Shown here in pieces: positions 1 to 13,842 of a DNA stretch of 64,000 nt. Positions within the stretch are counted from its first letter, which is position 1. Each line of letters begins with the position of its first letter. The notes under the pieces are model-generated. The model was not told the DNA's origin. It did not search any database and worked only from the letters and a program-made list of their open reading frames with translations. The position numbers were made by a program, and so were the translations under genes. Origin of the DNA: an uncultured Veillonella sp. (GTDB taxonomy: Bacteria; Bacillota; Negativicutes; Veillonellales; Veillonellaceae); contig CAUQIT010000012.1 in the NCBI GenBank assembly GCA_963518505.1, positions 6,858 through 70,857 on the forward strand. Reading direction: 5' to 3'.

Positions 1-1015
1 TATTCATCGTTCCTATGATTGAAAGATTAAATGGAATCCTAACTTTTTGATTTGGATCACCATATACAACATTTGCAATATTAGGATTTGTAATTCCATA
101 TTCACTAGTTCCGATTGGTAATTCATCATCATATCCATTTTCTTCAACTTTACGATCTAATAATTGGAATACTTCACCAAAGATAGCCGGTGCATTCCCT
201 CTATTAATTTCCTCTATAATCAGAACATAATCTCCTTCAGGATCCGCATAAGCATCTCGCAATATACTAGTAAATGGACCTGGTGTAAACTTATAGCTAA
301 TTTGGCCATCTTCCGCAACATTTGGCAATATCTGTCCGACAAAATCAGAATATGTGTAGTCTGGATGAAAAACTAGACGCTCCACATGACTTTCTGGAGT
401 GCAATATTCATGTTGTATGGTCCAACTTTTTCCTGAACCTGGAACACCATATAATAAAATGTTAGTACCTGTTTTTGGTCTACAATCTTCACAAGATACA
501 TCTTTTACTATATTAGATTCAACATGTGTATGCATATTTCTTAAAGCATCATCATGAATCCAATCTGTATTATTTAAATAAAAATATAATAATTCTTTTC
601 GAAAAGCACATGCAAACTCTGTTCCTTTTAATTGTTGCGCAAAACCATTCATCTTTGCCATATTAATTGTTTCATTTTTTATTTGCTTTGAAAGGGTATT
701 CTTTGCATTCGAATGTTTAACTTTAAATGTACAAATAATAGGCTCTCCGTCATCATCAGAAACTATCCCTAAAAGAACTCCTTTTTTATCTTGGAGAATC
801 TTTTCTTCTATATAATTATTTGATACACCCTTTATCTGAATTCTTTGCTCGTTACTAAGAGCCTCCCTTCCTCCAAAAGTAACTTCTTTCGCACAAACAA
901 AGTAAGTTCCATGGTTCATTGTTATAACTTCAAATATCTCACTTTCGTTATCAATTTGAGTTACAGTTGTATTCTCATCATATATATTAAATAATGATTC
1001 TAGCTTTTTTTTCAC
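1..1015 (-). CDS. McrB-like AAA+ GTPase restriction subunit (LlaJI.R1-like). The N-terminal part is present and the 3' end runs off the window.
   Basis: My own translation of the minus strand starts at GTG 1015..1013, which overlaps the upstream stop TAG by 1 nt. It stays open to position 1. It reads ...NILLYGVPGSGKSW... (Walker A), HPDYTYSDFVGQ, IIEEINRGNAPAIFGEVFQLLDR and ends ...SIIGTMN. These are the McrB-family signature blocks. The ORF is missing from the ORF track because no stop lies inside the window. Confidence 0.8.
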   Translation of the reverse strand, partial: MKKKLESLFNIYDENTTVTQIDNESEIFEVITMNHGTYFVCAKEVTFGGREALSNEQRIQIKGVSNNYIEEKILQDKKGVLLGIVSDDDGEPIICTFKVKHSNAKNTLSKQIKNETINMAKMNGFAQQLKGTEFACAFRKELLYFYLNNTDWIHDDALRNMHTHVESNIVKDVSCEDCRPKTGTNILLYGVPGSGKSWTIQHEYCTPESHVERLVFHPDYTYSDFVGQILPNVAEDGQISYKFTPGPFTSILRDAYADPEGDYVLIIEEINRGNAPAIFGEVFQLLDRKVEENGYDDELPIGTSEYGITNPNIANVVYGDPNQKVRIPFNLSIIGTMN

Positions 1016-2085
1016 TATTGTTCACCATCACTTTTTTTAAAGTATTGTTTCATAATACTGGTTGCAATTAACGCTACCATGTCAACTGGAACTGCATTTC
1101 CAACTTGTCTCCATTGGTCTTTAAAGTCACCACATATTATATACTCATCATCAAAAGTTTGAATTCTCTTAATCTCATTAATTCTTAAGAATCTATTCGT
1201 CCAATGAAATGGGCCCATATTATTGGAAAAACTAGCTTGAATAGTCCATGACGGCCTATTCGGAGATAGTTTTAATAAAAACGACCAGTATCTTGACCTC
1301 CATTTAAAAATAGGCTTAGGATATCCTCTTTTTTCTGTGAAAAACAGATAATTATCTCCTGGAGGAACTAGCTTAAGCAACTCTTTATGTCTTGAACCAG
1401 CTTGCATCTGCTCATCCTCTGGTAAAGAGTAATCCAAATCTCCAATAGCCTCCTTACAGGTAACCCAAATTTTTTTTCCATCGATACCATTTGGATATTT
1501 TTCAGGATTATAATGTGTTTCATCTGGAAATATAAACTTATCAGCAAAATCCTTTCTCACACCAATACAAATAAATCTTTCTCTAGTTTGAGGTATCCCA
1601 TAATTTGCTGTGTTAACAACCTTATATGTTATTTCATAATTAAATTCTTCTGCTTTATTTTTTAATAATTCGAATGCATCCTTATGAGGTTTATATATAA
1701 ATCCATGAACATTTTCAAAGAAAAATATCTTTGGTCTTATTTCCTCTAACGCTCTAAAATATTCAAAAAGAGTAAATGAGTTTTCATCTTCTAATGCTCT
1801 TTTTTTATCAGTTCGATAAAATCGTGACTTAGAATAAGCTGGGCAAGGAGGGCCTCCCACAAGCACATCAACATCTGTTTTTTTCATCTCAAGTTTCATA
1901 AGCTGATCTTCATAGTTAATATTTCTTATATCATCACAGACAACCAACCTCCCTACTTCATTTCTAGTTAATGTATCGCAAGCAGTTTGCCAAAAATCTG
2001 TCGAGAAACATATATCAAATCCTGCTTTTTTAAAACCACAATCGATACCACCACCACCTGAAAAAATACTTAATACATTTGGCAT
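1015..2085 (-). CDS. DNA (cytosine-5)-methyltransferase, second of a pair
   Basis: Motif I is FSGGGG, motif IV is GGPPCPAYS (PCP instead of the usual PCQ), motif VI is ENV, motif VIII is QTRER and motif X is GNAVP. The ATG at 2085 overlaps the upstream TAA by 1 nt (TAATG) and has an AAGGAG ~9 nt upstream. The track ORF extends to 2136. Confidence 0.9.
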   Translation of the reverse strand: MPNVLSIFSGGGGIDCGFKKAGFDICFSTDFWQTACDTLTRNEVGRLVVCDDIRNINYEDQLMKLEMKKTDVDVLVGGPPCPAYSKSRFYRTDKKRALEDENSFTLFEYFRALEEIRPKIFFFENVHGFIYKPHKDAFELLKNKAEEFNYEITYKVVNTANYGIPQTRERFICIGVRKDFADKFIFPDETHYNPEKYPNGIDGKKIWVTCKEAIGDLDYSLPEDEQMQAGSRHKELLKLVPPGDNYLFFTEKRGYPKPIFKWRSRYWSFLLKLSPNRPSWTIQASFSNNMGPFHWTNRFLRINEIKRIQTFDDEYIICGDFKDQWRQVGNAVPVDMVALIATSIMKQYFKKSDGEQ

Positions 2086-3143
2086 TAATCTAAACTCTCC
2101 TTTACAAACTCTATCATAGCTTTTCCCATGAGACATGGTACAGCATTACCTATTTGCTTTTGTATTGATCTCCTACTGCCACAAAACTTATACCCTTTAG
2201 GAAAAGTCTGAATTGCTGCTACTTCAGGTACTCTTAACCTTCTATTATCCCAATGAAAAGGACCCACCCAAGGTCCTGGCTGCGCACATATTGTCCATGA
2301 TGGTTGATCAGGTGATAATTTAAGCAAAAAATTCCAAAATCTTTTATCTGCAACAAATTTAGGATTAGGGTATCCAGCCCAAGCTGTTAGCGCTTTATAA
2401 TTCATACCTTGAGGCACCTCGCATAAATCATCATGGTAAGTACCACCTTTTGTTACTTCATATTCTTCAAAATATTCAGGTCCTTCATAGCCTAAAATAA
2501 CATCTCCTACATTTACATAAGGCAACAAACCTTCTTTTTCTGCGCATTCGGGCCTACCATGAGTTTTTTTTGGTTCAGCACTCTTAAATTCATTTTTTGT
2601 TCCTAATATAAACAGTCTCTTTCTTTTTTGCGGAACACCATACTCTAGCGCATTCGCACGGATAATCTTATACTTATATCCTGCCTCCTCTATAATTTCA
2701 ATAAACTTATCTACTATTACCTTATTTGATGGATGCATCAAACTTTCAACATTCTCGAAAACGAAACCGTCTGGATTTAAATCAGTAACCACTCTTAAAT
2801 ATTCATTAACTAAATTTGCTCGTGGATCATTAATCCCTTTTCTAACATTATTGGTTACCCAATATCCCGCTTTAGAAAATGGCTGACAAGGTGCTCCACC
2901 AATCACTATAAATTTATTTGGCTTCTCTTCATCCACATACATTTTAAGAGTCTCACTTTTAATTTCATGAAGGTCACCTTCTAATATTTTGGTCCCACCA
3001 AAATATTCTTCATTAGCTTTTAAAGTCTCAATACAATCATGATCAAAATCTGTACTTAAAATAACAGGAATACCAGCCATATGACTAGAAATATCTAAAC
3101 CTCCTGCTCCTGAAAATAAGCTAATTGAAACTATCTTTTTCAT
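2085..3143 (-). CDS. DNA (cytosine-5)-methyltransferase, first of a pair
   Basis: Carries the FSGAGG, GGAPCQPFS, ENV, QKRKR and GNAVP motifs of Dcm-type m5C methyltransferases. Confidence 0.92.
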   Translation of the reverse strand: MKKIVSISLFSGAGGLDISSHMAGIPVILSTDFDHDCIETLKANEEYFGGTKILEGDLHEIKSETLKMYVDEEKPNKFIVIGGAPCQPFSKAGYWVTNNVRKGINDPRANLVNEYLRVVTDLNPDGFVFENVESLMHPSNKVIVDKFIEIIEEAGYKYKIIRANALEYGVPQKRKRLFILGTKNEFKSAEPKKTHGRPECAEKEGLLPYVNVGDVILGYEGPEYFEEYEVTKGGTYHDDLCEVPQGMNYKALTAWAGYPNPKFVADKRFWNFLLKLSPDQPSWTICAQPGPWVGPFHWDNRRLRVPEVAAIQTFPKGYKFCGSRRSIQKQIGNAVPCLMGKAMIEFVKESLD

Positions 3144-3464
3144 ATATATTTTATCTCCTATAATACAAATATTTTACAGTATTACTACTTTTTTTATACA
3201 CAGTATTACCATACCTAATTGAATTAGATACATATAAATTTATTAATAAATAATCTAATATATATTCATAAATACATTCTATATTCAGTAGTGATTTAAA
3301 CATTTTTAACAAAAATATTTCTCAAAAAAAGATTCTGTGTATATGATTAATATTATCCATAGTGATTACCTCGTGATATCTTGTAATTTAGCACTATAAT
3401 CATACCACGAAATCACTATGGATTTTTTATATTCAAATATACAATTAACCTTAAGCCAGACATT

Positions 3465-4529
3465 TTATTTTATAGTCGTTTTCCTTATATATTCAAATAA
3501 ATAAGCCATAGCTTCTTCTAAACTAAAAAAATTTCTACTCTCGCTAGAAGAACGCCTACCATTATTTTTAACTACAACATTTACACTTTTTCTTTTCATC
3601 TCTATATAAATCTCTTTATTTGGTAACCCTGTAGATCTACCTATCCAATGATAATTATCAATCATATTCCAATTATATAAAAAGTGTATTTTCTCAAGAG
3701 CATTTCTCATCTCTACAGCACTATGATATCTTTTTTCAGGTAAAGGATTACAAGCCTTCTTAATTATCTTCTGAATTTTTAGTGGAACATATGGTTCTTG
3801 CTGTATTTTTCCAATTAATTTTCCCTTTCTTATAAGACTTTCAAAGTTAGGTATATTTTGCAAAAACAAACTCCAGTTTGATATGTTATTTACCATCCTG
3901 AACATCGTCATACCTAATGCAAAAATATCTGTTTCTACCGTTGCAATAGAACAGTCGACAAAAGTTTCTGGGGCAGCATGAAATCTATACCATCTCCATG
4001 GAATAATTACGCCTCCTAATGCCGTTGACAATCCAAAATCCGATAATTTAGGTATATCATTATCAAGCAAAATATTTGCAGGTTTTATATCTCTATGTAT
4101 AATACCTTTTAAATGAGAAAATTCAACTGCAAACAAGATATCCTTAATATAATGTATACTCTCAGCAATAGGGATGAATCTATTTCTAAGTAGACTTTCA
4201 AGCGAAGTTCCGTTTGCTAATTCCATATCCACAACAAAAACCAGTTCAGAATTGAAGTTGAGCAACTCACCACTATTTATTCTAATAATATTGTTATGCC
4301 GGCATTCATATGGGATTGCTGCTTCATTAAAAAGTTCATATGCTTTTCTAGGATTTGAAACTTCCAATATCTTAATAGCCTTTTCCGCATTTAAAACTCT
4401 ATCTACAGCTTTATAAACTGCACCAAATCCACCATTCCCCAACTTAGCTATTAGTTTATATTTTCCAATTTCTTCACCAGAATAATCAATTTCAATATCC
4501 ATATTACTTCCCAATCTCAAACCACGCAA
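3465..4529 (-). CDS. Soluble Hanks-type Ser/Thr protein kinase with an unassigned ~70-aa C-terminal domain
   Basis: Carries a G-loop GNGGFGAVYKA, the lysine in AIKIL, HRDIKPANILL, DFG and AAPE. I see no TM, PASTA or FHA segment. An alternative start is the ATG at 4502, 1 nt after the upstream stop (TAAtATG). Confidence 0.85.
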   Translation of the reverse strand: MRGLRLGSNMDIEIDYSGEEIGKYKLIAKLGNGGFGAVYKAVDRVLNAEKAIKILEVSNPRKAYELFNEAAIPYECRHNNIIRINSGELLNFNSELVFVVDMELANGTSLESLLRNRFIPIAESIHYIKDILFAVEFSHLKGIIHRDIKPANILLDNDIPKLSDFGLSTALGGVIIPWRWYRFHAAPETFVDCSIATVETDIFALGMTMFRMVNNISNWSLFLQNIPNFESLIRKGKLIGKIQQEPYVPLKIQKIIKKACNPLPEKRYHSAVEMRNALEKIHFLYNWNMIDNYHWIGRSTGLPNKEIYIEMKRKSVNVVVKNNGRRSSSESRNFFSLEEAMAYLFEYIRKTTIK

Positions 4530-4941
4530 TTAATGTAGCTTGCATTTCTTCATCCGTTCTAAAACGCATATCTGAAAAATGCTCCGTACAATTTATTATT
4601 TTTACTTTCTTCCCCGCTGTAATCCACTGATTGCTTCTTTCAGTAACAGCTATATTATTTTGACTACACAACAAATTTAAAACTCCAATTGAAAAGTGCA
4701 TATAAGGTATCTGCTTTATATTAACATTTAAAGATAGCTTATATACAATAGTATCAGGGTGAAATTTTGTAATTAATTCAGTAAAGATATTATGGAAATT
4801 CATCATCAATCTCCCTGTATGTGTATCTATTTGAAAACTTTGCTTTCCAGTCTCCAAAAGAACAGCAGACTCCATATTTGATCCATCAACAACAGAATAC
4901 CATAGTTCATTTTTCTTTATTGCAATACCAAGGCTTTTCAT
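4504..4941 (-). CDS. Hypothetical 145-aa protein, possibly of a non-catalytic RNase-H-like / DUF3010-like fold
   Basis: The ORF is tightly coupled to the kinase gene. The N-terminus MKSLGIAIKKNELWYSVVDG resembles the first strand-turn-strand of the RuvX/RuvC/DUF3010 layout but lacks the acidic residue. The family assignment is from memory only. Confidence 0.55.
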   Translation of the reverse strand: MKSLGIAIKKNELWYSVVDGSNMESAVLLETGKQSFQIDTHTGRLMMNFHNIFTELITKFHPDTIVYKLSLNVNIKQIPYMHFSIGVLNLLCSQNNIAVTERSNQWITAGKKVKIINCTEHFSDMRFRTDEEMQATLIAWFEIGK

Positions 4942-5242
4942 AGATTTATAACTCCTTAAATTATTTTATTACTGACATAGTAATACTTTGTTATACCAAT
5001 ATATTAAATTCTTCACTTACAAAAATAATCCATGAAGCAGAAATTTCGATAATATGTATATCAAGCTTCTCTACTAAAAACTATATCAACATTTTGTCAA
5101 CACACCCCTACTTCAATAGTCTTATCTACTCAAACTCCAAAAAGTCCTTGATTTCATGCGGTTTCCATACTATTCCCCCATCTCGATTTTAGACCATATC
5201 ACCCCTTAAAAAGCCCCATATTTACTAAAGTTTTATACACTT

Positions 5243-6625
5243 TTAATTCTGTACTTTAGTCAGCAACGCCACGGCCTCAACATGATACGTCTGCGGGAAC
5301 ATATCTACTGGTTGGACTTTCACTAATTGATAGCCATATCTCGTTAATATTTCTATATCTCGTGCCATAGAGGATGGATTACAAGATACATACACCATCC
5401 GTTCTGGCGCCATGCCAACGGCAGCGTGTAATACATCTTCTTTACAGCCTGCACGGATGGGATCAAATACGATGACATCTGGCTTGATACCTTGTTTATA
5501 CAATCTGGGCATTTCTACGGCTGCATCGCCTACGATAAATTCTGTATTACTATATCCATTTCGTTCTGCATTCTTTTTCGCATCTGCAATAGCAGGTTCA
5601 ACAATTTCAATACCGATAACATGTTTTGCTTTGTGCGCCAAGAACAAGGAAATAGTTCCTGTTCCACAATAAGCATCAATCACCGTTTCATGGCCTTTCA
5701 ATTCTGCAAATTCCAAGGCTGTATCGTATAACACGGTGGTTTGTTCTGGATTCACTTGAAAGAAAGAATGGGGTGACAACTGAAAGGATAAATCTTTAAT
5801 ATAATCTGTAATTTGGTCTTTTCCATAGATCGTACGATTCGCAGGTCCTAAGATGACATTCGTTTGTTTTGGATTGTGATTCACTACGATGGATGTTACC
5901 TTTGGTAACGCTGTTACGATACGGTCTACCAATTCTGATTCACGAGGAATATTAGCAGTCCGACTCACAAGAATAACCATCCATTCATCTTTTCCAATAC
6001 GTCCAATAACATGACGAAGAACACCTCTTCCTGTATGCTCATCATAAGGCTCGATACCTAATTCATGCGTAGACTCATAGCAAACTTTACGAATCTCATC
6101 ATTGCCCACATCTTGAATCGGGCACTGTTCATGGTTAATGATGCTATGGGATCCCTTTTGGTAAAATCCCATACGGATGTTGCCGATGGTTCCACCTACA
6201 GGCATTTGCATTTTATTACGATATCGCCAAGGCTCCTCTGGGCCTATGCAAGGTAAGACCAAATTAGGGTCACATTTGGCGATACGTTCTATTACCGATT
6301 TCACAGATTCTGTTTTCAAGTGCAATTGTTCTGCATAGGATGCATGTTGTAATTGGCAGCCCCCACAATTACCATATACCTTACATTCTGGGGCCACTCG
6401 CTCTGCTGACGGTGTGAGCACCTCTACAATATCCCCTACAGCATAATTCTTTTTGACTATGGTAATCTTCACTTGTACCGTTTCATTCGGCAATGCATAG
6501 GGTACAAATACAGTAAAGCCTTCGTATCTGCCTACCCCTTCACCACTACTGCCAGTGCCGTGAATTTCTATCGTATATGTATGTCCAACGCACACCGGTG
6601 CTTTCTGTTGTTTCTTCTCACTCAT
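5243..6625 (-). CDS. rlmD: 23S rRNA (uracil-5)-methyltransferase, RumA/RlmD family (TRAM domain, Fe-S cysteines, SAM methyltransferase)
   Basis: Has an N-terminal TRAM-like region, the CGGCQLQH cluster motif, the SAM-binding DAYCGTGT motif and a C-terminal VSCNP. Confidence 0.9.
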   Translation of the reverse strand: MSEKKQQKAPVCVGHTYTIEIHGTGSSGEGVGRYEGFTVFVPYALPNETVQVKITIVKKNYAVGDIVEVLTPSAERVAPECKVYGNCGGCQLQHASYAEQLHLKTESVKSVIERIAKCDPNLVLPCIGPEEPWRYRNKMQMPVGGTIGNIRMGFYQKGSHSIINHEQCPIQDVGNDEIRKVCYESTHELGIEPYDEHTGRGVLRHVIGRIGKDEWMVILVSRTANIPRESELVDRIVTALPKVTSIVVNHNPKQTNVILGPANRTIYGKDQITDYIKDLSFQLSPHSFFQVNPEQTTVLYDTALEFAELKGHETVIDAYCGTGTISLFLAHKAKHVIGIEIVEPAIADAKKNAERNGYSNTEFIVGDAAVEMPRLYKQGIKPDVIVFDPIRAGCKEDVLHAAVGMAPERMVYVSCNPSSMARDIEILTRYGYQLVKVQPVDMFPQTYHVEAVALLTKVQN

Positions 6626-6816
6626 CTATATATCCTTTAATCCAAGTAATTTGTTTCTATCATTATGTTATTATATCATTTTTTATCTGTTCCTAACACG
6701 TCTATATATCTCATACTACCTAGTCTAATTCCCACACATGCACACCATTTATATCATTAATCTAAGTACCTTAGTAAACGTCTATTTAGCATTTGCTGAA
6801 AATATTACTACGAAGC

Positions 6817-6869
6817 AAATAAAAAGCATATAGCCTTCATTGATGTACGACATCATGAAAACTATATGC
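6817..6869 (-). terminator. Rho-independent terminator downstream of the TerC-family gene
   Basis: Arms gcatatag / ctatatgc enclose a second inner stem. On the minus strand a TTTTTATTT tract follows. Confidence 0.45.
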
Positions 6870-7003
6870 CTATGTTATACATAAAAGCTATTTGTTGAGG
6901 TTTGTCTATTGCCATCCTCTCAAAATATAGTATAGAACTTTATTTACTGACTAGTGTCTCATATATAATAAGATATATAGAGAATACTTTTACAATCTCC
7001 AGT

Positions 7004-7666
7004 TTATTTCATCAATCGATTACGAATCATTGCCGCACCTAATACCAATACGACACATCCAATATGAAATGGTAAGCTATATGGTTCAATGTATGGCGTT
7101 GCCATTGGATCATGTTGAATCATGCTTGCAGAGACCCAACCTAAGATACCGCCACCTACATACAAAATGACAGGGAATTTATCGATTAGTTTTACAAAGA
7201 TAGTACTACCCCAAACAATGATTGGTACGGTCACTAACATCCCTGCCACCACAAGGCCGAAATGACCTTCTGCTGCTGCTACAACACCTAGCACATTATC
7301 GATGCCCATCACACCGTCTGCAATGATGATAGTAGCAATGGCACCCCAGATGTTATCTTTTGCTTCAATATTGTGTTCATTATCACCATCTTTTAATAAG
7401 GAGTAACCAATCCAAAGCAACATAATACCGCCAACGATACGTAATGCTGGAATGTTATCTAAGGCTTCGATAAAAAGAATCGCCATAATTAAGCGTAAGC
7501 CAATGGCGCCAGCGGTACCCCAAAAAATAGCGCGCTTGCGCAACGTTTCCGGCAAATTTTTCGCAGCCATGCCGATGACAATGGCATTGTCCCCTGCTAA
7601 TAATATATCAATAATAATAATTTGTAGAATTGCTAATAACCCTTGTGTTGATGTAATATCCACCAT
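7004..7666 (-). CDS. TerC/YjbE-family integral membrane protein
   Basis: A polytopic protein with the duplicated GDNAIVIG / GIDNVLGV motifs typical of the TerC family. Confidence 0.85.
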   Translation of the reverse strand: MVDITSTQGLLAILQIIIIDILLAGDNAIVIGMAAKNLPETLRKRAIFWGTAGAIGLRLIMAILFIEALDNIPALRIVGGIMLLWIGYSLLKDGDNEHNIEAKDNIWGAIATIIIADGVMGIDNVLGVVAAAEGHFGLVVAGMLVTVPIIVWGSTIFVKLIDKFPVILYVGGGILGWVSASMIQHDPMATPYIEPYSLPFHIGCVVLVLGAAMIRNRLMK

Positions 7667-7866
7667 TTCCTCCTATATATACTACTTAGAATACATTTTA
7701 TTATATCATAGAGAACATGTAAAACAAAGGATAGCCGATTCAAATGAACCGACTATCCATCTAGTATGTTAGAATCTACACAACCGTAGTTTCCTATCTT
7801 TTATTTTGTGTAACTACACTTTGCAATTAGATGTTCTTTCTGTTTTACAACAAATCAATGACTTCT

Positions 7867-8700
7867 CTAATTTAGAATATATACTTTCACTGTACGACGA
7901 CCAAATTGTATGGCCTCATCATAACTATCCATAGCCACATCGATGCGGTGACCTACAATATCGCCACCAGTATCATCTGCCACAGCATAGCCATATCCTT
8001 CTACATACACCTCTGTGCCCAATGGAATCACATTAGGATCTACCGATACATATCCTCGGCGCAATGCATGTCCTCGTGCTGTATAAGAACCTGATTCTTG
8101 ACTAGTATAAGCAGTAGCCTCCATCTCTATGGTTTTTCTATAGGATGATGGCTTGCGACCTTTTTGGAAGGTACTATGTGTTGTGTTCGATAACTTAGAC
8201 CATGTAGTAGCATCTAAGATACCAGTTTCACGTATCCCATGATACCGTTGAAAGCGAAGTAAGGCTTCTTTTGTGCCACTACCAAATACGCCATCAATGG
8301 AACCAGGAGAAAATCCACTATCTTCTAATTTACTTTGTAATTCTTCTATTTGTCGACCGCGATCACCAAACCGTGATACCTCGACAGTACGGGTATTTCG
8401 AGATGTTTGTTGCCCCTCGAATTGTTTTTGATTCTCTAGTAAAGCACGCATTGTTTCTTTGCCTACTCTACCATCTGGAGTTAACCCGTGTTCTTTCTGA
8501 AAGACGAGTACTGCGTATTCTGTATTATTCCCAAACACTCCATCTGCTGTATCAAGCAAATAGCCTTGGGCTACTAACAACGCTTGTAACTCTTCTACTT
8601 CAGCTCCACGATCTCCACGTCCCGATGTTGCCAAGGCTGTCACCATGGAACATACAAAAAGGAGAATCGCTATAAGAGTTATTTTTTTCACGATGTTCAC
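7867..8700 (-). CDS. Secreted cell-wall protein with two peptidoglycan-binding (PG_binding_1) repeats and a C-terminal 3D domain
   Basis: Has a signal peptide and a twice-repeated LQ..L...G......DG.FG..T..A...FQ motif. The C-terminus reads TAYT...VDPNVIPLGT...ADDTGG...IDV. Confidence 0.85.
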   Translation of the reverse strand: MNIVKKITLIAILLFVCSMVTALATSGRGDRGAEVEELQALLVAQGYLLDTADGVFGNNTEYAVLVFQKEHGLTPDGRVGKETMRALLENQKQFEGQQTSRNTRTVEVSRFGDRGRQIEELQSKLEDSGFSPGSIDGVFGSGTKEALLRFQRYHGIRETGILDATTWSKLSNTTHSTFQKGRKPSSYRKTIEMEATAYTSQESGSYTARGHALRRGYVSVDPNVIPLGTEVYVEGYGYAVADDTGGDIVGHRIDVAMDSYDEAIQFGRRTVKVYILN

Positions 8701-9069
8701 CTCATATCTAAATGCTTATACATTTTACCATTTTTTGGGACATACGTCAAAAAAACAGGCCTTTTTTAACACTTTAACACCACTTAGTGCCTATTTTTAA
8801 CGCATTTTTCCCACATATAGTATAAATTCCCACTCACAGGAAATACCACCTACTACATATGTACACTAAAAATGTTAGTTTCGCTCAATTTCTATGGTAA
8901 ATATGCATATACATAGGGGTACTATACTAAATTGGCATAATAAATCATTTCAATATGATATGATACAAACGTTTTACATATTAAAAATGGTCATAATAAA
9001 AAAGCTCACTAAAATAACTAATTATAATTCAAGTGAACTTTTTATGATAAATCTTTTAATATAAATTGT

Positions 9070-9327
9070 TTAAAATGCCGTAATTGTTGCTAGCAATCCA
9101 AAGATTACTCCCGGCAAGTTTGCTGCTGACAAAGGATAGTCCTTTTTTTCTTTTAAAAGTCCATAACTTGTCCATATTGCACAGTTAATCGTCGCTGCCA
9201 ACGGCTGCAGAAAAAATGTTTTATGCCCAGCCAAGTTTCCCATTATTTGTGGAACATAAGACACATACATGATGACAGAAAGTATTGTTCCAATCCATCC
9301 TACAATTTTTAAATTTTTTTCACTCAT
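9070..9327 (-). CDS. SemiSWEET (PQ-loop/MtN3) small sugar transporter
   Basis: An 85-aa protein with three TM helices and a VPQI motif. Confidence 0.75.
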   Translation of the reverse strand: MSEKNLKIVGWIGTILSVIMYVSYVPQIMGNLAGHKTFFLQPLAATINCAIWTSYGLLKEKKDYPLSAANLPGVIFGLLATITAF

Positions 9328-9590
9328 TTTATTTTCTCCTATTTTCTAAGTTCAATTAACTTGTATGTTTTAGTAGTATATCACAAAATATTAGGAAATC
9401 AACACTTACATTAAAATTTTTCTATATAATATATTCATGACATACATTATACAAGATAAACTGAAGTATATTTTTAGTAACAACAATATGATTATATGAA
9501 TTTAATTTTCTTATAAATTAAAAAAGCTGTAATGAAAGTTTCCTTTCACTACAGCTTATATAGAGCCTCTACTCTCTATGTATAATGCAA

Positions 9591-10775
9591 TTAAATATGT
9601 TGTCCTTTGATCATATCGTATTCAGACACGCTCACTTGTTGTTTACGTCCAGCAATTTTTAATACTATATATCCCAAGATACCAGATACGATAGAACCAA
9701 CGAAGATACCAACTTTTGCCATTTCTTGTGCTTCTCCTGGAGGGAATGCCAACAAGGATACAAACAAGCTCATGGTAAATCCGATACCACAGCATAAAGC
9801 GATACCATACACATGAACCCAATTGGTTTGAGCTGGCATTTCCACGAGCTTAGATTTCACTAGCAAGAACAAGGTGCCAAATACACCTACTTGTTTACCA
9901 AGTACTAAGCCTACTGCTACACCCAATACAACCGGGTGAGCAAAGCTTTCTAAGGTAAATCCATGGAAGGATACCCCTGCATTGGCAAAACCAAAGATTG
10001 GAATGATTAAGTAGGTAACCCAGTTACTCAAAGTATGCTCCCATTCAGATAAAGGAGATACATGACGTCCATCACGTATACCATGATATGGAATAAACGC
10101 TGCTAGAATAACGCCCGCTAAGGTAGCATGTAATCCAGACTTAAACACACAGAACCAAAGGCCAAAGCCTAGGGCTAAATACGGAATTGGTCGTGTATAG
10201 TTCATACGGTTTACGTATTGTAACATGAATACGATGATTGCTGCTACGAATAAGTAAAAGAAATTTAACTCCGCTGTATAGAAAAAAGCAATGATAACGA
10301 TAGCCATCAAGTCATCCATAACAGCCAAGGTAGTTAAAAATACTTTCATCGCAATGGGCACTCGATCACCTAAGAGTGAAACGATACCGATGGCAAAGGC
10401 GATATCTGTAGCGGTTGGAATCCCCCAACCATGAATAAATTCTGGATGATAACCGACAATGAAATAATAAATTAAAGCCGGCATTAAAAGACCAAAGAAT
10501 GCAGCAATACCTGGCAAAAATCGTTTTGCATTGGTATTCAATTCTCCTGCAATCATTTCTCGTTTTACTTCAAGGCCTACAAATAAAAAGAAGACCGCCA
10601 TGGCCACGTCATTAATCCATAATTCAATAGATAATGGTCCCAATTTAGCATGAAGTAAAGAGTGATACAAACTTTCTACTGGAGAGTTTGCCAATAGCAC
10701 CCCTACCACAGCAGCTACAAAGAGTAGTACTCCCCCTGCTGATGGTGATGTAAAAAAAGATACAATTCGATTCAT
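9591..10775 (-). CDS. nhaA: Na+/H+ antiporter NhaA
   Basis: Full-length similarity to NhaA, including the TDIAFA and AVMDDL motifs. Confidence 0.92.
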   Translation of the reverse strand: MNRIVSFFTSPSAGGVLLFVAAVVGVLLANSPVESLYHSLLHAKLGPLSIELWINDVAMAVFFLFVGLEVKREMIAGELNTNAKRFLPGIAAFFGLLMPALIYYFIVGYHPEFIHGWGIPTATDIAFAIGIVSLLGDRVPIAMKVFLTTLAVMDDLMAIVIIAFFYTAELNFFYLFVAAIIVFMLQYVNRMNYTRPIPYLALGFGLWFCVFKSGLHATLAGVILAAFIPYHGIRDGRHVSPLSEWEHTLSNWVTYLIIPIFGFANAGVSFHGFTLESFAHPVVLGVAVGLVLGKQVGVFGTLFLLVKSKLVEMPAQTNWVHVYGIALCCGIGFTMSLFVSLLAFPPGEAQEMAKVGIFVGSIVSGILGYIVLKIAGRKQQVSVSEYDMIKGQHI

Positions 10776-10860
10776 ATAATTACCCCTCTACTATGTAATA
10801 TATATCATTGAATAAGTAAACTATGTCTTTTGTTATTATATCACTAATTATATTCTTTAT

Positions 10861-12144
10861 CTATCGAGTTTTTTCTATATTGCACATGTATACAAAATCC
10901 AAACTAGATTTACCAATGTCCTTACGGTGTTGTTGTCCCTCAAAATCAATCATCCCCACACGTTCATAAGCATGTGCTAAGGATTGTTCTAACGTATCTC
11001 CCAATCCTACCACACCTAACACTCGACCGCCTTGTGTTACATAGTGATCCATTTCATATGCTGTACCAGAGTGAAATACCATCGATCTAGTATCCATAGT
11101 ATATACATCACCTGCGATACATCGACCTACCAATGCCTGATATGGATATCCTTCGGATGCTAAGATAACACATGACGCATACTGTTTGGACCACTCCAAG
11201 GTCATTCCCTCTAATTGTCCCGTAGCCGTGGCATACATGATAGCTCCTAGATCACTCTGTAGTAATGGCAATATCACTTGTATTTCTGGATCTCCGAAAC
11301 GAGCATTGAACTCTACTACTTTCGGTCCTTCTTCGGTAAGCATAAGACCTGTATACAAGCAACCCACATAAGGATGACCTTCTTCTGCCATGGCTTTCAC
11401 GATGGGCTTTACTATGGTGTCTACTGTGACTTGCTCCAATGTATCATCCAGTTCTGGCACCGGTGCATAGGCTCCCATACCTCCTGTATTAGGACCTGCA
11501 TCATGGTCTAACAATCGTTTATGATCCCTTGCTCCTATCATGGGCAAGACGTGGGTACCATCCACAAAGGACAACAAGGATACCTCCCGTCCTCGCATAT
11601 GTTCCTCAATTACAACGCATTCATCGGAATTACTCAGCATCTCTTGCAATACTTGTTCTGCTTCTGTGAAAGTCTCACAAATGGTGACACCTTTACCACC
11701 GCATAGGCCATCCCTCTTTAACACAATCGGTACACCCCATTGATGAATGATTCGCTTTCCTGTTTCTATATCTTGGCAGACCTCATACTTTGCTGTAGGA
11801 ATCTCATATCGACGCATTACATCTTTTGCAAACGACTTAGACCCTTCTAATCGAGACGCCTGCTGGGATGGTCCAAATACTGGAATCCCCACGGCTCGAA
11901 TTGCATCACTAAGTCCTTCTACGAGAGGCAATTCAGGTCCTATCACAACCAAATCAATCGTATAGTCCAATAACCAAGCTAATAAGGTGTCTCGGTTCTT
12001 CCAATCTAGGTTGACTATAGTGGCTATCGAAGTCATTCCTGCATTGCCTGGCACTACATAAACATCTGTTACAGAGGGACTGTGATGCAATTTCCAAGCT
12101 AATGCGTGTTCACGACCACCATTGCCAATAATACATACTTTCAT
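10861..12144 (-). CDS. purD: Phosphoribosylamine--glycine ligase
   Basis: Starts MKVCIIGNGGREHALAWKL and shows an ATP-grasp layout. Confidence 0.95.
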   Translation of the reverse strand: MKVCIIGNGGREHALAWKLHHSPSVTDVYVVPGNAGMTSIATIVNLDWKNRDTLLAWLLDYTIDLVVIGPELPLVEGLSDAIRAVGIPVFGPSQQASRLEGSKSFAKDVMRRYEIPTAKYEVCQDIETGKRIIHQWGVPIVLKRDGLCGGKGVTICETFTEAEQVLQEMLSNSDECVVIEEHMRGREVSLLSFVDGTHVLPMIGARDHKRLLDHDAGPNTGGMGAYAPVPELDDTLEQVTVDTIVKPIVKAMAEEGHPYVGCLYTGLMLTEEGPKVVEFNARFGDPEIQVILPLLQSDLGAIMYATATGQLEGMTLEWSKQYASCVILASEGYPYQALVGRCIAGDVYTMDTRSMVFHSGTAYEMDHYVTQGGRVLGVVGLGDTLEQSLAHAYERVGMIDFEGQQHRKDIGKSSLDFVYMCNIEKTR

Positions 12145-12164
12145 AGATGCCTCGCAATATTAAA

Positions 12165-12788
12165 CTATCTTATAGTAGCTTCTTTCTTAATGACAACACG
12201 AGATTCCACGATTTCCAAGGCATCCTCGCAAAATAAGCGCACCGCCTCTGGGTAGATGCGATGCTCTTCATGCAAGATTCGTGTTGATAAAGTATCCACC
12301 GTGTCATCTTCATAGACAGGTACCACCGCCTGCACAATGATAGGCCCCGTATCCATGCCTTCATCTACAAAATGAACGGTACATCCTGTGTATGTTACGC
12401 CTTTTAATAAGGCTTGCTTCTGTGCCTGTAAGCCTGTAAAAGCCGGTAATAAAGAGGGATGAATATTCAAGATTTTTCTTCTGTAGGCTTGCACAAATGT
12501 AGGTGGTAATAGACGCATATACCCAGCTAACAAGATGCCCTCCACTTCATATTCTTGTAACAAATCTAGCATAACTTGTGTCCAGGCTGCTTCAGTACCA
12601 TAGTTGGCAGGATCTGCTATGTGTACAGGAATGTGCCAAGCACGTCCCTTCACCACAATGCCCACATGGGGTCTATCACTAATAATAAGAACGATTTCAC
12701 CCTCTATGTACCCCGCTTCTATAGCCTTATAGATGGCTTCTCCATTAGACCCTCTGCCACTGCCAAATAGAGCCAATCGTTTACCCAT
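12165..12788 (-). CDS. purN: Phosphoribosylglycinamide formyltransferase
   Basis: Carries the GSGRGSN and NIHPSLLP motifs. I prefer the ATG at 12788 (GGTGAGG lies 6 nt upstream) over the TTG at 12803 used by the track. Confidence 0.92.
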   Translation of the reverse strand: MGKRLALFGSGRGSNGEAIYKAIEAGYIEGEIVLIISDRPHVGIVVKGRAWHIPVHIADPANYGTEAAWTQVMLDLLQEYEVEGILLAGYMRLLPPTFVQAYRRKILNIHPSLLPAFTGLQAQKQALLKGVTYTGCTVHFVDEGMDTGPIIVQAVVPVYEDDTVDTLSTRILHEEHRIYPEAVRLFCEDALEIVESRVVIKKEATIR

Positions 12789-13842
12789 GGAATGCCTCAC
12801 CAAGAATCGTCACATCTCCTTGCCCTTCTGTAACAAGTCCAATGGAGTACACCACTTCCCCTTGCTCTTGCAACACTTCTACGACTCGTTCTACTAACTC
12901 TGGCTTCACTACTAGCACCATACCTATGCCCATATTGAAAGTATGATACATTTCTCTCGTTTCCACATGTCCCCATTCTTGTAATAGCTTAAAAATAGGT
13001 GGTACTGGCCACGCATCACTATGAATCGTAACAGATAACCCCTTTGGTAATATGCGAGGAATATTGTCGTAGAAAGATCCTCCTGTTATATGAGCCATCC
13101 CCTTCACTAACTGTTCTTTCAGTAGTGTTAGAATAGGTTTTACATACAGTTTCGTTGGTGTTAATACTTCTTCTCCAATGGTGCAACCTAACTCGTCTAC
13201 ATAGGTATCCAATGGTATTTGTTGTTTTTCTAAGATAATATGGCGCACTAAGGAAAATCCATTGGAGTGTAAGCCTGATGAAGGTAAACCTAGTACCATA
13301 TCTCCTGCCTCGATAGAGGCTCCTGTAATGCATCTGTCCTTATCTACAATCCCCACTGCAAAGCCAGCTAAATCATAATTGCCATCGCCGTAGAAACTAG
13401 ACATTTCCGATGTTTCTCCACCGATTAAAGCACACCCACATTCTTCACAAGCCTCACCAATACCATCGATGATACTTTCAATATGATTATGTTCCAATTT
13501 ACCGACTGCAATGTAGTCTAGAAAAAATAAAGGAGTCGCCCCCTGTGCTACCACATCGTTCACACTCATAGCCACACAATCTTGACCAATCTGGCGATGC
13601 TCATTCATGAGGACGGCAAAGCGAATTTTTGTACCCACTCCATCTGTGCTTGATACTAGCACGGGTTCTTTCATGCTATGGCCTGCTAAAGAATAGAGCC
13701 CACTAAAACCACCTAGAGATCCTAGTACACCCGGTGTATAGGTGCGTTCCACACGGTGTTTAATCTTTTGAATGAGCTGGTTCCCCGCTTCTACATCCAC
13801 GCCAGCATCTAAATAAGTAACAGGTGTATTATCAACAGACAT
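12781..13842 (-). CDS. purM: Phosphoribosylformylglycinamidine cyclo-ligase (AIR synthetase)
   Basis: Carries typical PurM blocks (DGVGTK, GGET). I prefer the ATG at 13842, which has a GGGAGG RBS. The track ORF starts at 13866. Confidence 0.93.
   Translation of the reverse strand: MSVDNTPVTYLDAGVDVEAGNQLIQKIKHRVERTYTPGVLGSLGGFSGLYSLAGHSMKEPVLVSSTDGVGTKIRFAVLMNEHRQIGQDCVAMSVNDVVAQGATPLFFLDYIAVGKLEHNHIESIIDGIGEACEECGCALIGGETSEMSSFYGDGNYDLAGFAVGIVDKDRCITGASIEAGDMVLGLPSSGLHSNGFSLVRHIILEKQQIPLDTYVDELGCTIGEEVLTPTKLYVKPILTLLKEQLVKGMAHITGGSFYDNIPRILPKGLSVTIHSDAWPVPPIFKLLQEWGHVETREMYHTFNMGIGMVLVVKPELVERVVEVLQEQGEVVYSIGLVTEGQGDVTILGEAFHG

Follow-up and report, generated by a model that had tools for sequence, protein, structure and literature searches.

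A two-gene module of unusual composition is encoded on the reverse strand of the Veillonella contig studied here. Its first gene encodes a protein of 145 amino acids with the fold of the Holliday-junction resolvase RuvC, and its second gene encodes a soluble Ser/Thr kinase of 345 amino acids. The two genes form an obligate, tightly coupled pair. In Veillonella and in other Firmicutes the pair is found among phage-defence genes, which makes it a credible candidate for a two-gene immune module. We consider the chances somewhat better than even that it is a chromosomal anti-phage module of the abortive-infection or growth-arrest type.

Kinase-based immunity in bacteria is known from few cases, namely Stk2, PD-T4-6, PglW, mad6 and the HipA-like systems. 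To our knowledge, the way in which defence kinases sense infection is mostly unresolved. The module described here is a compact, two-protein case, with an inactivated Holliday-junction resolvase as its putative sensor. If validated, it would represent a new class of sensor in bacterial immunity, in which a pseudo-nuclease serves as a decoy or as a reader of DNA structure, and would offer a testable model of how a Hanks kinase is switched on in defence. It would also mean that distinct systems are concealed by present annotation tools, which would give the kinase the generic label PD-T4-6 and pass over its partner.

The positions of the two genes and of their neighbours are given in Table 1. 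The window is the whole stretch of DNA that was analysed, 64,000 nucleotides in length.

Table 1. Features of the gene pair and its surroundings, in positions of the window
Feature	Position	Strand	Basis or remark
Gene 1, 145-aa RuvC-fold protein, predicted pseudo-nuclease	4504..4941	-	ORF list; stop codon included
Gene 2, 345-aa soluble Hanks-type Ser/Thr kinase with C-terminal tail domain	3465..4502	-	ORF list; stop codon included
Kinase catalytic domain, residues 12-272	3687..4469	-	Pfam residues 15-260; PADLOC and NCBIfam about 12-272
Conserved C-terminal tail domain of the kinase, residues 273-345	3468..3686	-	Conservation and AlphaFold2 model
Translational-coupling junction TAA-T-ATG between genes 1 and 2	4500..4506	-	Read from the sequence
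Shine-Dalgarno AAGGAG, 10 nt 5' of the gene 1 ATG	4952..4957	-	Read from the sequence
Inverted repeat, 20-nt arms, 85% complementary, 29-nt loop	3355..3423	.	In the 321-nt spacer from the kinase stop to the first methylase
C5 cytosine DNA methylase M1, LlaJI-type R-M	2085..3143	-	Pfam DNA_methylase E 1.4e-53; PADLOC MTase_II
C5 cytosine DNA methylase M2, 52-nt overlap with M1	1015..2136	-	Pfam DNA_methylase E 1.8e-59
LlaJI R1-type gene, 5' part (MTaX1 and AAA_5, McrB-like), runs off the window start	2..1015	-	340-codon open frame
Core gene rlmD (TRAM and U5 methyltransferase), RlmD-like	5243..6625	-	Pfam; upstream neighbour of the gene pair

A first-pass annotation of this DNA had described two open reading frames that are 1 nt apart, or that overlap by 26 nt if a longer kinase frame is used, and both coordinates were confirmed. 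The TAA stop of gene 1 (4506-4504) lies 1 nt from the kinase ATG (4502-4500). The alternative start is a TTG, which gives a reverse-strand frame of 354 aa (3465-4529) overlapping gene 1 by 26 nt. Since M1, D6, Y7, S8 and G9 are near-invariant among 47 homologues, the ATG is the conserved start.

The pair had also been placed in an AT-richer block, beside an LlaJI-type restriction-modification (R-M) system and abutting rlmD. This is correct: GC content is 23-37% across positions 1-5000 against 39-47% in the flanking core genes, and the neighbours are methylases, an MTaX1/AAA_5 gene and an RlmD-like gene. At another locus of the family (L013), RE_LlaJI is preceded by an MTaX1/AAA_5 gene, to which the frame at the start of the window has 94% identity over 338 aa. 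The inverted repeat downstream of the kinase is possibly a terminator or an operator; because it has no T-run, it was not called by the terminator scan. Scanning the region for promoters and terminators gave results no better than shuffled sequence, and Rfam gave no match over positions 1-7000.

The small RuvC-fold protein

In its AlphaFold2 model (pLDDT 93) the small protein forms one compact domain that is ordered throughout. Its best Foldseek matches in the PDB are RuvC structures (7w8d, 7xhj, 4ld0, 6s16 and 1hjr; TM 0.75-0.82, E down to 2e-10), and the RuvC fold covers the protein over its full length. The best structural matches in BFVD are viral RuvC resolvases.

Where RuvC has Asp7, Glu66 and Asp141, the small protein has A7, K68 and A135. 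Because these three catalytic acids are replaced, the protein would be a pseudo-nuclease, and on its sequence and model it is a catalytically dead RuvC-fold protein. The absence of an acid at the catalytic position had already been noticed in the first-pass annotation, and the residue there is indeed Ala 7, the equivalent of Asp7 in RuvC. In the family alignments positions 7 (Ala) and 68 (Lys) are near-invariant, and at position 135 the majority of members have Ala. Across the wider family position 7 varies freely and is non-acidic in most members, and position 68 is Lys or Arg in most. In the last helix, where residues were mapped by eye and without structural superposition, E131 alone is conserved relative to the RuvC tetrad (D7, E66, D138 and D141 in E. 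coli).

The correspondence with RuvC can be traced in several ways. In the HMMER alignment to 7w8d, the sequence AYK of the small protein faces AIE of RuvC. When the family profile was compared by hhalign with an approximate E. coli RuvC sequence, the central helix alone was aligned, so the mapping rests on the HMMER alignment and the fold match. That helix is alike in sequence in the two proteins (TELITKFHPD against TEIITQFQPD). A link between the family and true RuvC is provided by P0270, the weakest family match, a bona fide RuvC-like protein that retains the motifs GIDTG, AYE and DAIAIAG. A further match of 929 aa, P0237, in which 13 stretches were matched, proved to be the translation of a tandem repeat and was set aside as unrelated.

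The small protein had been likened to RuvX, RuvC and DUF3010. Of these likenesses, that to RuvC stands, as a fold shared over the full length, and the other two do not. The DUF3010 model (PF11215) scores 16 bits against a gathering threshold of 25 (E 0.016), with residues 1-68 aligned to a model of 137 positions, and membership was rejected; RuvX membership was rejected on a score below threshold. DUF3010 is matched at E <0.01 by two of the 33 members of the wider family. DUF3010 proteins have conserved active-site residues (Majorek et al. 2014, PMC3985635), whereas these residues are lost in the family described here. The NCBIfam RuvC model gives 13.4 bits against a cut-off of 163, Pfam RuvC has no match to the protein of the window, and PADLOC has no model for it. 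One member of its cluster is annotated automatically, in one source, as 'Holliday junction resolvasome RuvABC endonuclease subunit'. The family is basic, with a median pI of 8.5.

The kinase and its C-terminal tail

The second gene matches Pfam Pkinase (E 1.3e-37, 130 bits against a cut-off of 31.7) and has the elements that define a Hanks-type Ser/Thr kinase: the P-loop, the VAIK Lys, the alphaC Glu, HRD, DFG and APE. All of the catalytic Hanks motifs listed in the first-pass annotation are thus present, and they are invariant in 47 homologues (G22, G24, K44, E60, H136, D138, K140, N143, D155-F-G and A177-P-E). With its catalytic residues intact, the kinase is predicted to be active. In the AlphaFold2 model (pLDDT 91) the catalytic domain is closest to PknB (TMt 0.79). 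The kinase had been said to lack TM, PASTA and FHA segments, which agrees with our searches: the Pkinase domain is its only Pfam match, with PASTA and FHA absent, and its maximum 19-aa hydropathy is 1.16, which indicates that there is no TM segment.

The kinase domain also resembles kinases of named defence systems. Its best PADLOC match is mad6 (E 1e-41). The PD-T4-6 models match at E 1e-38 with about 91% model coverage, over residues 12-272 alone, and PADLOC would probably label the kinase PD-T4-6. In S. thermophilus, the housekeeping PASTA kinase is picked up by these models in all strains (PMC11514479), so the label is a generic one. The earlier statement that the pair matches no named defence system therefore needs amending for the kinase domain, which is matched by the mad6 and PD-T4-6 models; what stands of it is that the label is generic and that PADLOC has no model for the partner.

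Family-level models from NCBIfam give 99.7 bits for MAD6 (cut-off 460), 41 bits for PglW (cut-off 990) and 124 bits for Stk1/PknB (cut-off 450). Membership of the Stk1/PknB PASTA housekeeping kinases was rejected on this score and on the lack of PASTA and TM. Membership of MADS or BREX was rejected on the sub-threshold MAD6 and PglW scores and on the absence of other mad or pgl/brx genes among the annotated neighbours.

The kinase domain is followed by a tail of about 70 aa that had been noted as unassignable. The tail is real, conserved and confidently folded. It consists of 73 aa, forming a beta-meander of four to five strands and a terminal helix, with a pLDDT of at least 96 in the AlphaFold2 model. 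Aligned homologues share the invariant positions W278, W286-G, N314-x-R316, F325 and A331, a loop motif R-[RK]-x-[ST] occurs in 38 of 47 sequences, and the tail is kept in kinases of 34-39% identity. Profile searches with the tail alone found no match in Pfam, PHROGs or PDB sequences, and the tail profile recovered three fragments, and nothing else, from a set of 5.8 billion proteins.

Foldseek alignments that extend beyond the kinase domain were obtained for AMPK-alpha, KA1-autoinhibited MARK1, WNK3-CCT and CaMKII alone (380-460 columns, RMSD 15-23 A). Judged from the model, the tail may be an autoregulatory module like KA1 or the AMPK alpha-CTD. As in these eukaryotic CAMK-group proteins (6c9d, 4zhx), a small module of beta-sheet and helix comes immediately after the kinase domain; the tail differs from them in having no sequence similarity and in the RMSD of the alignments. 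The sole basis of the KA1-like reading is these long alignments of very high RMSD, and it is offered as a lead.

Pairing, distribution and genomic neighbourhood

The kinase lies immediately 3' of the small ORF in 50 of the 52 loci that have at least 1050 nt downstream of the small ORF, and the two unpaired loci carry truncated small-ORF remnants only. Pairing persists at identities of about 28-33% for the small protein and 34-39% for the kinase. In all lineages examined the junction is 1-5 nt long and a GGAG-like motif is present in the last codons of gene 1. Compared with the proteins of the window, the family has a mean identity of 58% in the small protein and 51% in the tail, as against 72% in the N-lobe and 67% in the C-lobe of the kinase. 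The small protein and the tail have thus diverged faster than the catalytic lobes, as would be expected if both face a variable trigger.

The preferred reading, an anti-phage module, can be set out as a mechanism. Translational coupling would have both proteins made in fixed proportion, and the pseudo-RuvC and the kinase would probably form a complex in which the pseudo-RuvC serves as sensor or regulator. It could be triggered by binding a branched or junction DNA intermediate from phage replication or recombination, or it could be engaged by a phage protein. The trigger would relieve or activate the kinase, possibly via the tail, and the active kinase would phosphorylate host or phage proteins and so halt infection, as is reported for staphylococcal Stk2. 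The association of the two proteins, the nature of the trigger, the activation of the kinase, its targets and any phage protection are all inferred.

A more specific version is speculative, and we regard it as improbable in its full form. The dead RuvC would sense nucleic acids in a structure-specific way, still binding junctions or branched DNA though no longer able to cleave them. It would switch on the Hanks kinase allosterically through the KA1-like tail, so that recognition of intermediates of phage recombination or replication leads directly to protein phosphorylation. The pathway may, in some clades, be linked with type IIG restriction enzymes into a four-gene system.

The module is rare and patchy. 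The family was found in 13 of 185,579 species genomes, distributed over Negativicutes, Bacilli and Clostridia, and 86 relatives were found among 1.84 billion representative proteins. Between a contig of Veillonella and one of Gemella, nucleotide identity is 92.6% over 5.25 kb. Among Veillonella of the human mouth and gut the module is common, one cluster member being present on 869 contigs, so that it is relevant to phage-host dynamics in the microbiome. A tblastn search of 72,556 plasmids and 50,697 phage genomes found no pair, and a scan of viral contigs with family alignment A1 found no relatives; carriage by phages or plasmids was rejected accordingly.

A different function for the same layout is that of a toxin-antitoxin or addiction module, in which the kinase is a growth-arresting toxin and the dead RuvC its stoichiometric inhibitor. 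Stabilisation of an island or element would then be the main role, and defence at most a by-product. The arrangement is that of a classic type II toxin-antitoxin pair, with a small upstream gene and a stop/start junction of 1-5 nt, and the pair occurs beside serine recombinase, IS transposase and integrase/MobA elements. At several loci (L004-6, L043, L044 and L050) the kinase alone is frameshifted, split or truncated and the small ORF is intact, as would fit a costly toxin. For HipA-type kinase toxins that have unrelated partners, a role in defence has been validated (DS-6, PMC13092281).

The small protein, however, has no recognisable DNA-binding autoregulatory domain and no disordered, labile region; with a fold that is compact and ordered throughout, it offers no obvious pointer to a labile-antitoxin mechanism. 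It is evolutionarily as long-lived as the kinase, and many surface-type residues are invariant in its alignment. Addiction modules are common in plasmids and phages, where this pair was absent from the collections searched. We therefore hold the addiction role to be unlikely, but worth keeping in sight. In part it overlaps with the anti-phage reading.

Defence genes occur within a few kb of the pair in about 18 of 23 distinct contexts, which is a plain count without background correction. Two further contexts have an integrase or IS only, and no recognisable defence neighbour is present at three loci (L014, L036 and L026). The neighbours include LlaJI, AlwI, HpaII, type I and type IIG R-M systems, AbiL, Hachiman, Lamassu LmuB, PDC-S73 and PDC-M62A, as well as Schlafen/AlbA_2 and SLFN-TIR proteins and HKD/SNF2. 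One context has a type I R-M system with a serine recombinase, and in another (L007) HpaII and Vsr lie on an integrase/MobA element. Division or cell-wall genes are near the pair in one case, FtsW/PBP past the far side of the AlwI island at L024.

The main argument for a defence role is guilt by association.

Of the findings that the first-pass annotation had named as counting against its proposal, three are computational: homologues that are not co-conserved, homologues that sit mostly in cell-wall or division operons, and a small ORF belonging to a characterised non-defence family. None of the three was found. The 50 of 52 paired loci extend down to about 30% identity, the neighbourhoods are almost solely those of defence islands or mobile elements, and the small ORF belongs to no such family.

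R-M genes are the commonest immediate neighbours, often on the same strand and with gaps of -4 to about 30 nt. Eco57I-type IIG genes adjoin the pair at five loci (L010, L023, L037, L042 and L045), and AlwI adjoins it at two (L024 and L053). The loci are partly dependent, as three type IIG contexts are one co-diverging cassette. In this cassette, at L010, L023 and L037, an N6_N4 MTase, a type IIG enzyme, the small protein and the kinase have co-diverged to about 40% identity (39/35/41% and 52/45/51% for IIG, small protein and kinase).

Such proximity suggests that the pair could be an accessory regulator of the adjacent R-M system. A DNA-structure signal would pass through the dead RuvC to the kinase, which would phosphorylate R-M components or their regulator, in a logic like that of PglW-PglX (Pgl/BREX type 2), mad6 (MADS) and CapK-CapS. 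Besides the adjacency (Eco57I-type IIG, AlwI, HpaII, LlaJI) and the co-diverged cassette, this role would fit with the kinase's best PADLOC match, mad6, being part of a methylation-associated defence system, and with CapK/CapS as a precedent for a kinase and small partner that regulate adjacent immune operons (PMC13373217).

The R-M type, however, changes with almost every clade (LlaJI, AlwI, HpaII, type I, type IIG, HKD/SNF2), and the R-M genes are found now upstream, now downstream of the pair. At several loci the neighbours are not R-M genes (AbiL, Hachiman, Lamassu, Schlafen) or are missing altogether (L014). The kinase scores against the MAD6 and PglW models are 100 of 460 and 41 of 990 bits relative to the NCBIfam cut-offs. 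Within islands, adjacency of R-M genes to the pair is expected by chance, since no defence genes are more common than R-M systems. We judge an R-M accessory role to be distinctly unlikely.

In Veillonella the 3' flank of rlmD is the recurrent home of the pair. The gene lies directly upstream at L012-L016 and L029-L035 (the L033 contig is too short), with 65-100% identity, and at L001, with 50% identity. Use of the same flank across Veillonella species (rlmD 65-100%) is also compatible with long vertical residence.

A conserved position beside rlmD might also be expected of a housekeeping gene pair, either a signalling kinase with a recombination or repair paralogue of RuvC, or a PD-T4-6-type single-gene kinase with an irrelevant neighbour. 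The automatic RuvABC annotation of one cluster member, the structural proximity of the kinase domain to PknB and the PD-T4-6 HMM matches (E 1e-38) point the same way. The RuvC catalytic acids are gone, though, with position 7 unconserved across the wider family, and the pair is confined to 13 of the 185,579 species genomes. The kinase has no PASTA, TM or FHA and scores 124 of 450 bits for Stk1/PknB, and its neighbours are defence and mobile-element genes, bar FtsW/PBP at L024. Co-occurrence in 50 of 52 loci excludes the irrelevant-neighbour reading, and distribution together with active-site loss already largely refutes a housekeeping role, which we consider very improbable.

Comparison with known kinase-based systems

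No description of a pair of dead RuvC and kinase was found in the literature on defence kinases, on DUF3010 or on RuvC-like proteins with kinases. Several known systems nevertheless share one or more of its features.

Stk2 of Staphylococcus epidermidis is cited to Depardieu et al. 2016 in PMC9519451. It is reportedly an anti-phage kinase that phosphorylates host or phage proteins and stops infection; it is reported to be a single gene and to be activated directly by a phage protein. By analogy, the kinase described here is alike in being soluble, eukaryotic-like, accessory and borne on an island, and its expected mode would likewise be abortive infection with many targets phosphorylated. The two are set apart, on that description of Stk2, by the obligate dead-RuvC partner and the family-specific tail found here.

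PD-T4-6 is a single-gene Ser/Thr kinase defence system of E. coli. Its PADLOC models match the kinase domain (E 1e-38) but leave out the tail and the partner gene, whereas the unit described here is an obligate two-gene one. RuvC shares its full-length fold with the small protein, but has Asp7, Glu66 and Asp141 where Ala, Lys and Ala are found here. Unlike RuvC, the small protein is always beside the kinase and outside a ruvABC context.

PglW (Pgl/BREX type 2) and mad6 (MADS) are alike in being Hanks kinases linked to DNA methyltransferase and restriction genes. They are large, multidomain proteins in systems of four to eight genes; here PglY, PglZ and the other mad genes are missing and the R-M partner varies.

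In CapK-CapS, a kinase and a small partner lie beside diverse immune operons and regulate them, the signal being ssDNA (PMC13373217). The logic would be similar to that of the present pair, a kinase and small partner near diverse immune operons, with a DNA-structure signal as proposed here. The folds are unrelated: CapK is a kinase of the anti-sigma-factor type (GHKL-like), and CapS is a STAS-domain repressor.

Finally, the layout of kinase and partner as two genes is shared with HipBA and with DS-6. DS-6, from DefensePredictor, consists of a HipA-type kinase toxin and an unrelated partner; it is validated in defence and needs its kinase activity, and the DefensePredictor kinase systems are HipA-like (PMC13092281). 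HipA kinases belong to another family than the Hanks kinases, and their partners are HTH or DUF3037/DUF1829 proteins, whereas the partner described here has a RuvC fold.

The gene pair and its flanks

Both tightly coupled reading frames of the first-pass annotation were found on the minus strand (see table). The small-ORF stop TAA (4506-4504) is followed, after one base, by the kinase ATG (4502-4500). Conservation of the N-terminus MDIxxDYSG across 47 homologues identifies this ATG as the true kinase start.

The annotation had also placed the pair in an AT-richer block that adjoins rlmD and a LlaJI-type restriction-modification (R-M) system, and this description holds. GC content is 23-37% in the block from 1 to ~5000 and 39-47% in the adjoining core genes. 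Upstream of the pair lies an RlmD-type TRAM/U5-methyltransferase gene, and downstream lie two overlapping C5 cytosine methylase genes. A 340-codon frame crossing the window start shares 94% identity with the MTaX1/AAA_5 gene of the Veillonella locus L013, which precedes an RE_LlaJI gene; this confirms the LlaJI-type context.

Lacking a T-run, the inverted repeat behind the kinase does not qualify as a canonical terminator; it may serve as an operator or mark the boundary between the pair and the LlaJI module. The genes beyond rlmD are ordinary core genes, all on the minus strand. Pfam families at the near-identical locus L012 supply their TerC, PG_binding/3D and SWEET labels; the antiporter and pur labels were read from the window translations.

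Coordinates of the pair, its flanks and features of other fetched loci (L numbers)
Feature	Position	Strand	Remarks
C5 methylase genes (LlaJI-type)	window 1015-3143		52-nt overlap at 2085-2136
R1 gene (LlaJI-type system)	start adjoins M2 (methylase) stop at ~1015		cut by window start, 5' part only
Inverted repeat	window 3355-3423		20-nt arms, 85% complementary, 29-nt loop; in 321-nt spacer, kinase stop to first methylase
Kinase ORF	window 3465-4502	minus	345 aa from ATG; alternative 354 aa from TTG at 4529
Tail loop motif	window 3519-3566		kinase residues 313-328; NNGRRSSSES
Small ORF	window 4504-4941	minus	145 aa
Shine-Dalgarno AAGGAG	window 4957-4952		upstream of small ORF; good match, by sequence reading
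rlmD	window 5243-6625 (with its 3' flank 4942-6625)	minus
Core genes	window 7004-15406	minus	TerC-family membrane protein, PG_binding/3D-domain protein, SWEET-like transporter, Na+/H+ antiporter
Purine operon purD-purN-purM-purF	within 7004-15406	minus
Frameshifted kinase	L004:8439-9477		55 + 298 aa; also L005, L006, L043
Split kinase	L044:8404-9468		243 + 107 aa
Four-gene cassette	L010:3725-9035, L023:4155-9300, L037:4373-9468		also L042, L045
Shared Veillonella/Gemella stretch	L016:9900-15200, L017:255-5489		5.25 kb
DUF4268 gene	L001:9961-10887		308 aa
DUF2992 gene	L018:156-572		138 aa
Gene with weak zinc-ribbon match	L007:7407-7949		180 aa

Fold and active site of the small protein

The small protein has a RuvC fold. 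Its AlphaFold2 model (44 homologues) is confident, with pLDDT 93, and its best PDB matches are full-length RuvC resolvases (TM 0.75-0.82, E down to 2e-10). Phage RuvC resolvases are likewise the top matches in a viral structure library. Sequence models score low: 16 bits for DUF3010 against a gathering score of 25, which is below significance, and 13 against 163 for NCBIfam RuvC. Searches of PADLOC and PHROGs gave no match.

Position 7, a RuvC catalytic-acid position, is Ala, so the missing acidic residue was correctly noted. The catalytic position on strand 4 is Lys68, with "AYK" opposite "AIE" in a HMMER alignment to D. radiodurans RuvC. Mapped by eye, the C-terminal helix reads E-x-x-x-A-T-L-I-A-W against D-A-A-D-A-L-A-I-A in RuvC. 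In the wider family position 7 is free to vary, and most members have Lys or Arg at position 68. The most distant match, P0270, retains GIDTG, AYE and DAIAIAG, and Pfam RuvC matches two of the 33 sequences in the wider-family alignment (best E 3e-11); together these bridge the family to true RuvC. Another match, P0237 (929 aa, 13 matched stretches), is an artefact, being a translated tandem repeat of ~70 aa, and no relative.

Judged by sequence and model, the small protein is an inactivated RuvC whose catalytic acids are gone, and the earlier label "RNase-H/DUF3010-like" should be sharpened accordingly. Membership of DUF3010 was rejected: only two of the 33 family members touch its model, and DUF3010 is described as keeping its active-site residues (PMC3985635), which the small protein does not.

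The family is small but real. It comprises 65 clusters at 90% identity among 5.8 billion proteins, 86 relatives among 1.84 billion representative proteins, and occurs in 13 of 185,579 species genomes. So narrow a distribution, and the loss of the active site, leave little room for a housekeeping role of the pair, which is very improbable.

The kinase, its tail and the pairing

Every Hanks catalytic residue is invariant across 47 homologues. Pkinase is the sole domain found and a hydrophobic segment is absent, in keeping with the earlier description of an intact kinase lacking a transmembrane or sensor module. In the model (pLDDT 91) the catalytic domain is nearest PknB.

The ~70-aa tail, which had defied assignment, has no sequence match in Pfam, PHROG or PDB and proves to be a conserved folded domain. 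Residues 273-345 form a compact unit of four to five strands and a terminal helix (pLDDT at least 96), with W278, W286, R316 and F325 invariant, and the tail is kept even in kinases only 34-39% identical. Foldseek alignments past the kinase domain involve only AMPK-alpha, KA1-autoinhibited MARK1, WNK3-CCT and CaMKII, at very high RMSD. The modelled tail may be an autoregulatory or partner-binding module, a lead rather than a finding. In 38/47 sequences a loop of the tail bears a basophilic motif, R-[RK]-x-[ST] or R-[RK]-[ST], which could be a pseudosubstrate or autophosphorylation site.

Pairing is obligate. Among 57 fetched loci, 52 have at least 1050 nt downstream, and the kinase lies directly 3' of the small ORF in 50 of these; in the other two the small ORF is itself only a truncated remnant. 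Co-conservation extends to the distant family tier, and the junction measures 1-5 nt across all lineages examined. As a two-gene module the pair is real, sharply bounded and co-evolving.

Divergence is faster in the small protein (mean identity to the window 58%) and the tail (51%) than in the two lobes of the kinase (72% and 67%). Against the window, L013 is 94% identical in the small protein and 74% in the tail, and L015 74% and 85%; this discordance suggests that Veillonella lineages have recombined within the module.

At six loci the kinase alone is damaged beside an intact small ORF: frameshifted next to an IS rve transposase (L004-6, L043; Congzhengia-type contigs from several independent assemblies), split (L044) or truncated (L050). 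Such pseudogenes fit a costly or toxic kinase. With the gene layout, they also favour an addiction module of kinase toxin and RuvC-like antitoxin, on balance an unlikely explanation.

Genomic neighbourhoods and known systems

Of ~23 distinct contexts, about 18 have recognised defence genes no more than a few kb away; two have only an integrase or IS element and three no defence neighbour. Searches of viral contigs (2.9 million), phage records (50,697) and plasmids (72,556) turned up no relative.

Neighbours of the pair
Neighbour	Loci
LlaJI R-M	window, L013
Serine recombinase + DUF4268 + Phd + type I R-M	L001 vs L002/3 (one island, two different chromosomal sites)
IS transposase only	L004-6
HpaII R-M + Vsr, on integrase/MobA element	L007
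N6_N4 MTase + Eco57I-type IIG	L010 (large island holding Schlafen and MmeI)
C5 methylase	L015
HKD/SNF2 + DUF4391 + MTase	L016, L017
PDC-S73	L018
AbiL, directly upstream	L019
Hachiman	L020
Schlafen/AlbA_2 and SLFN-TIR	L021, L046, L049
AlwI R-M	L024, L053
Lamassu LmuB	L031
PDC-M62A-like ATPase	L048
No defence neighbour seen	L014, L036, L026

In the window and in the Veillonella loci L012-L016 and L029-L035 whose contigs extend far enough upstream, the pair always lies at the 3' flank of rlmD. This is a recurrent variable region, where the cargo past the pair is LlaJI, a lone C5 methylase, HKD/SNF2 + DUF4391 + MTase, Lamassu LmuB, or nothing. Veillonella and Gemella MAG contigs (L016, L017) share the pair and a 1078-aa HKD/SNF2 helicase gene at 92.6% nucleotide identity, explained either by DNA passing recently between oral bacteria of different classes or by misbinning in the MAG. 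The DUF4268, DUF2992 and 180-aa neighbours are uncharacterised and recur next to the pair in certain lineages; none is conserved across the family.

One clade carries a four-gene cassette of N6_N4 methylase, ~915-aa Eco57I-type IIG enzyme, RuvC-like protein and kinase. Its gene gaps are -4 to ~30 nt, and it has co-diverged to ~40% identity (IIG/small/kinase 39/35/41% and 52/45/51%); it could represent a kinase-linked R-M subtype of its own. This cassette, and mad6 as best kinase match, favour an accessory regulator of the adjoining R-M systems. That role is weakened by the variety of partner systems and by loci without any R-M, and is rather improbable.

The most likely reading, held with some reserve, is that the two genes form a defence module of the abortive-infection type, in which the dead RuvC would be sensor or regulator and the kinase, by analogy with Stk2, the effector. 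The analysis demonstrates the RuvC fold, the loss of its active site, the integrity of the kinase, the obligate pairing and the genomic context; we infer that the proteins form a complex, as well as the trigger, the kinase targets and any phage protection.

The claim that no named defence system fits stands in part. PADLOC matches the kinase to PD-T4-6 (E 1e-38) and mad6 (E 1e-41), over residues 12-272 only. Its scores for MAD6, PglW and Stk1 fall far under the NCBIfam equivalog cut-offs, and membership of these was rejected. The PD-T4-6 label says little, since in S. thermophilus its models pick out the housekeeping PASTA kinase of every strain as well (PMC11514479). No description of a RuvC-like protein paired with a Hanks kinase was found in the literature searched. 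The pair is a strong candidate for a variant of kinase-based immunity not yet described. With CapK/CapS (PMC13373217) it has its logic in common, but not its folds.
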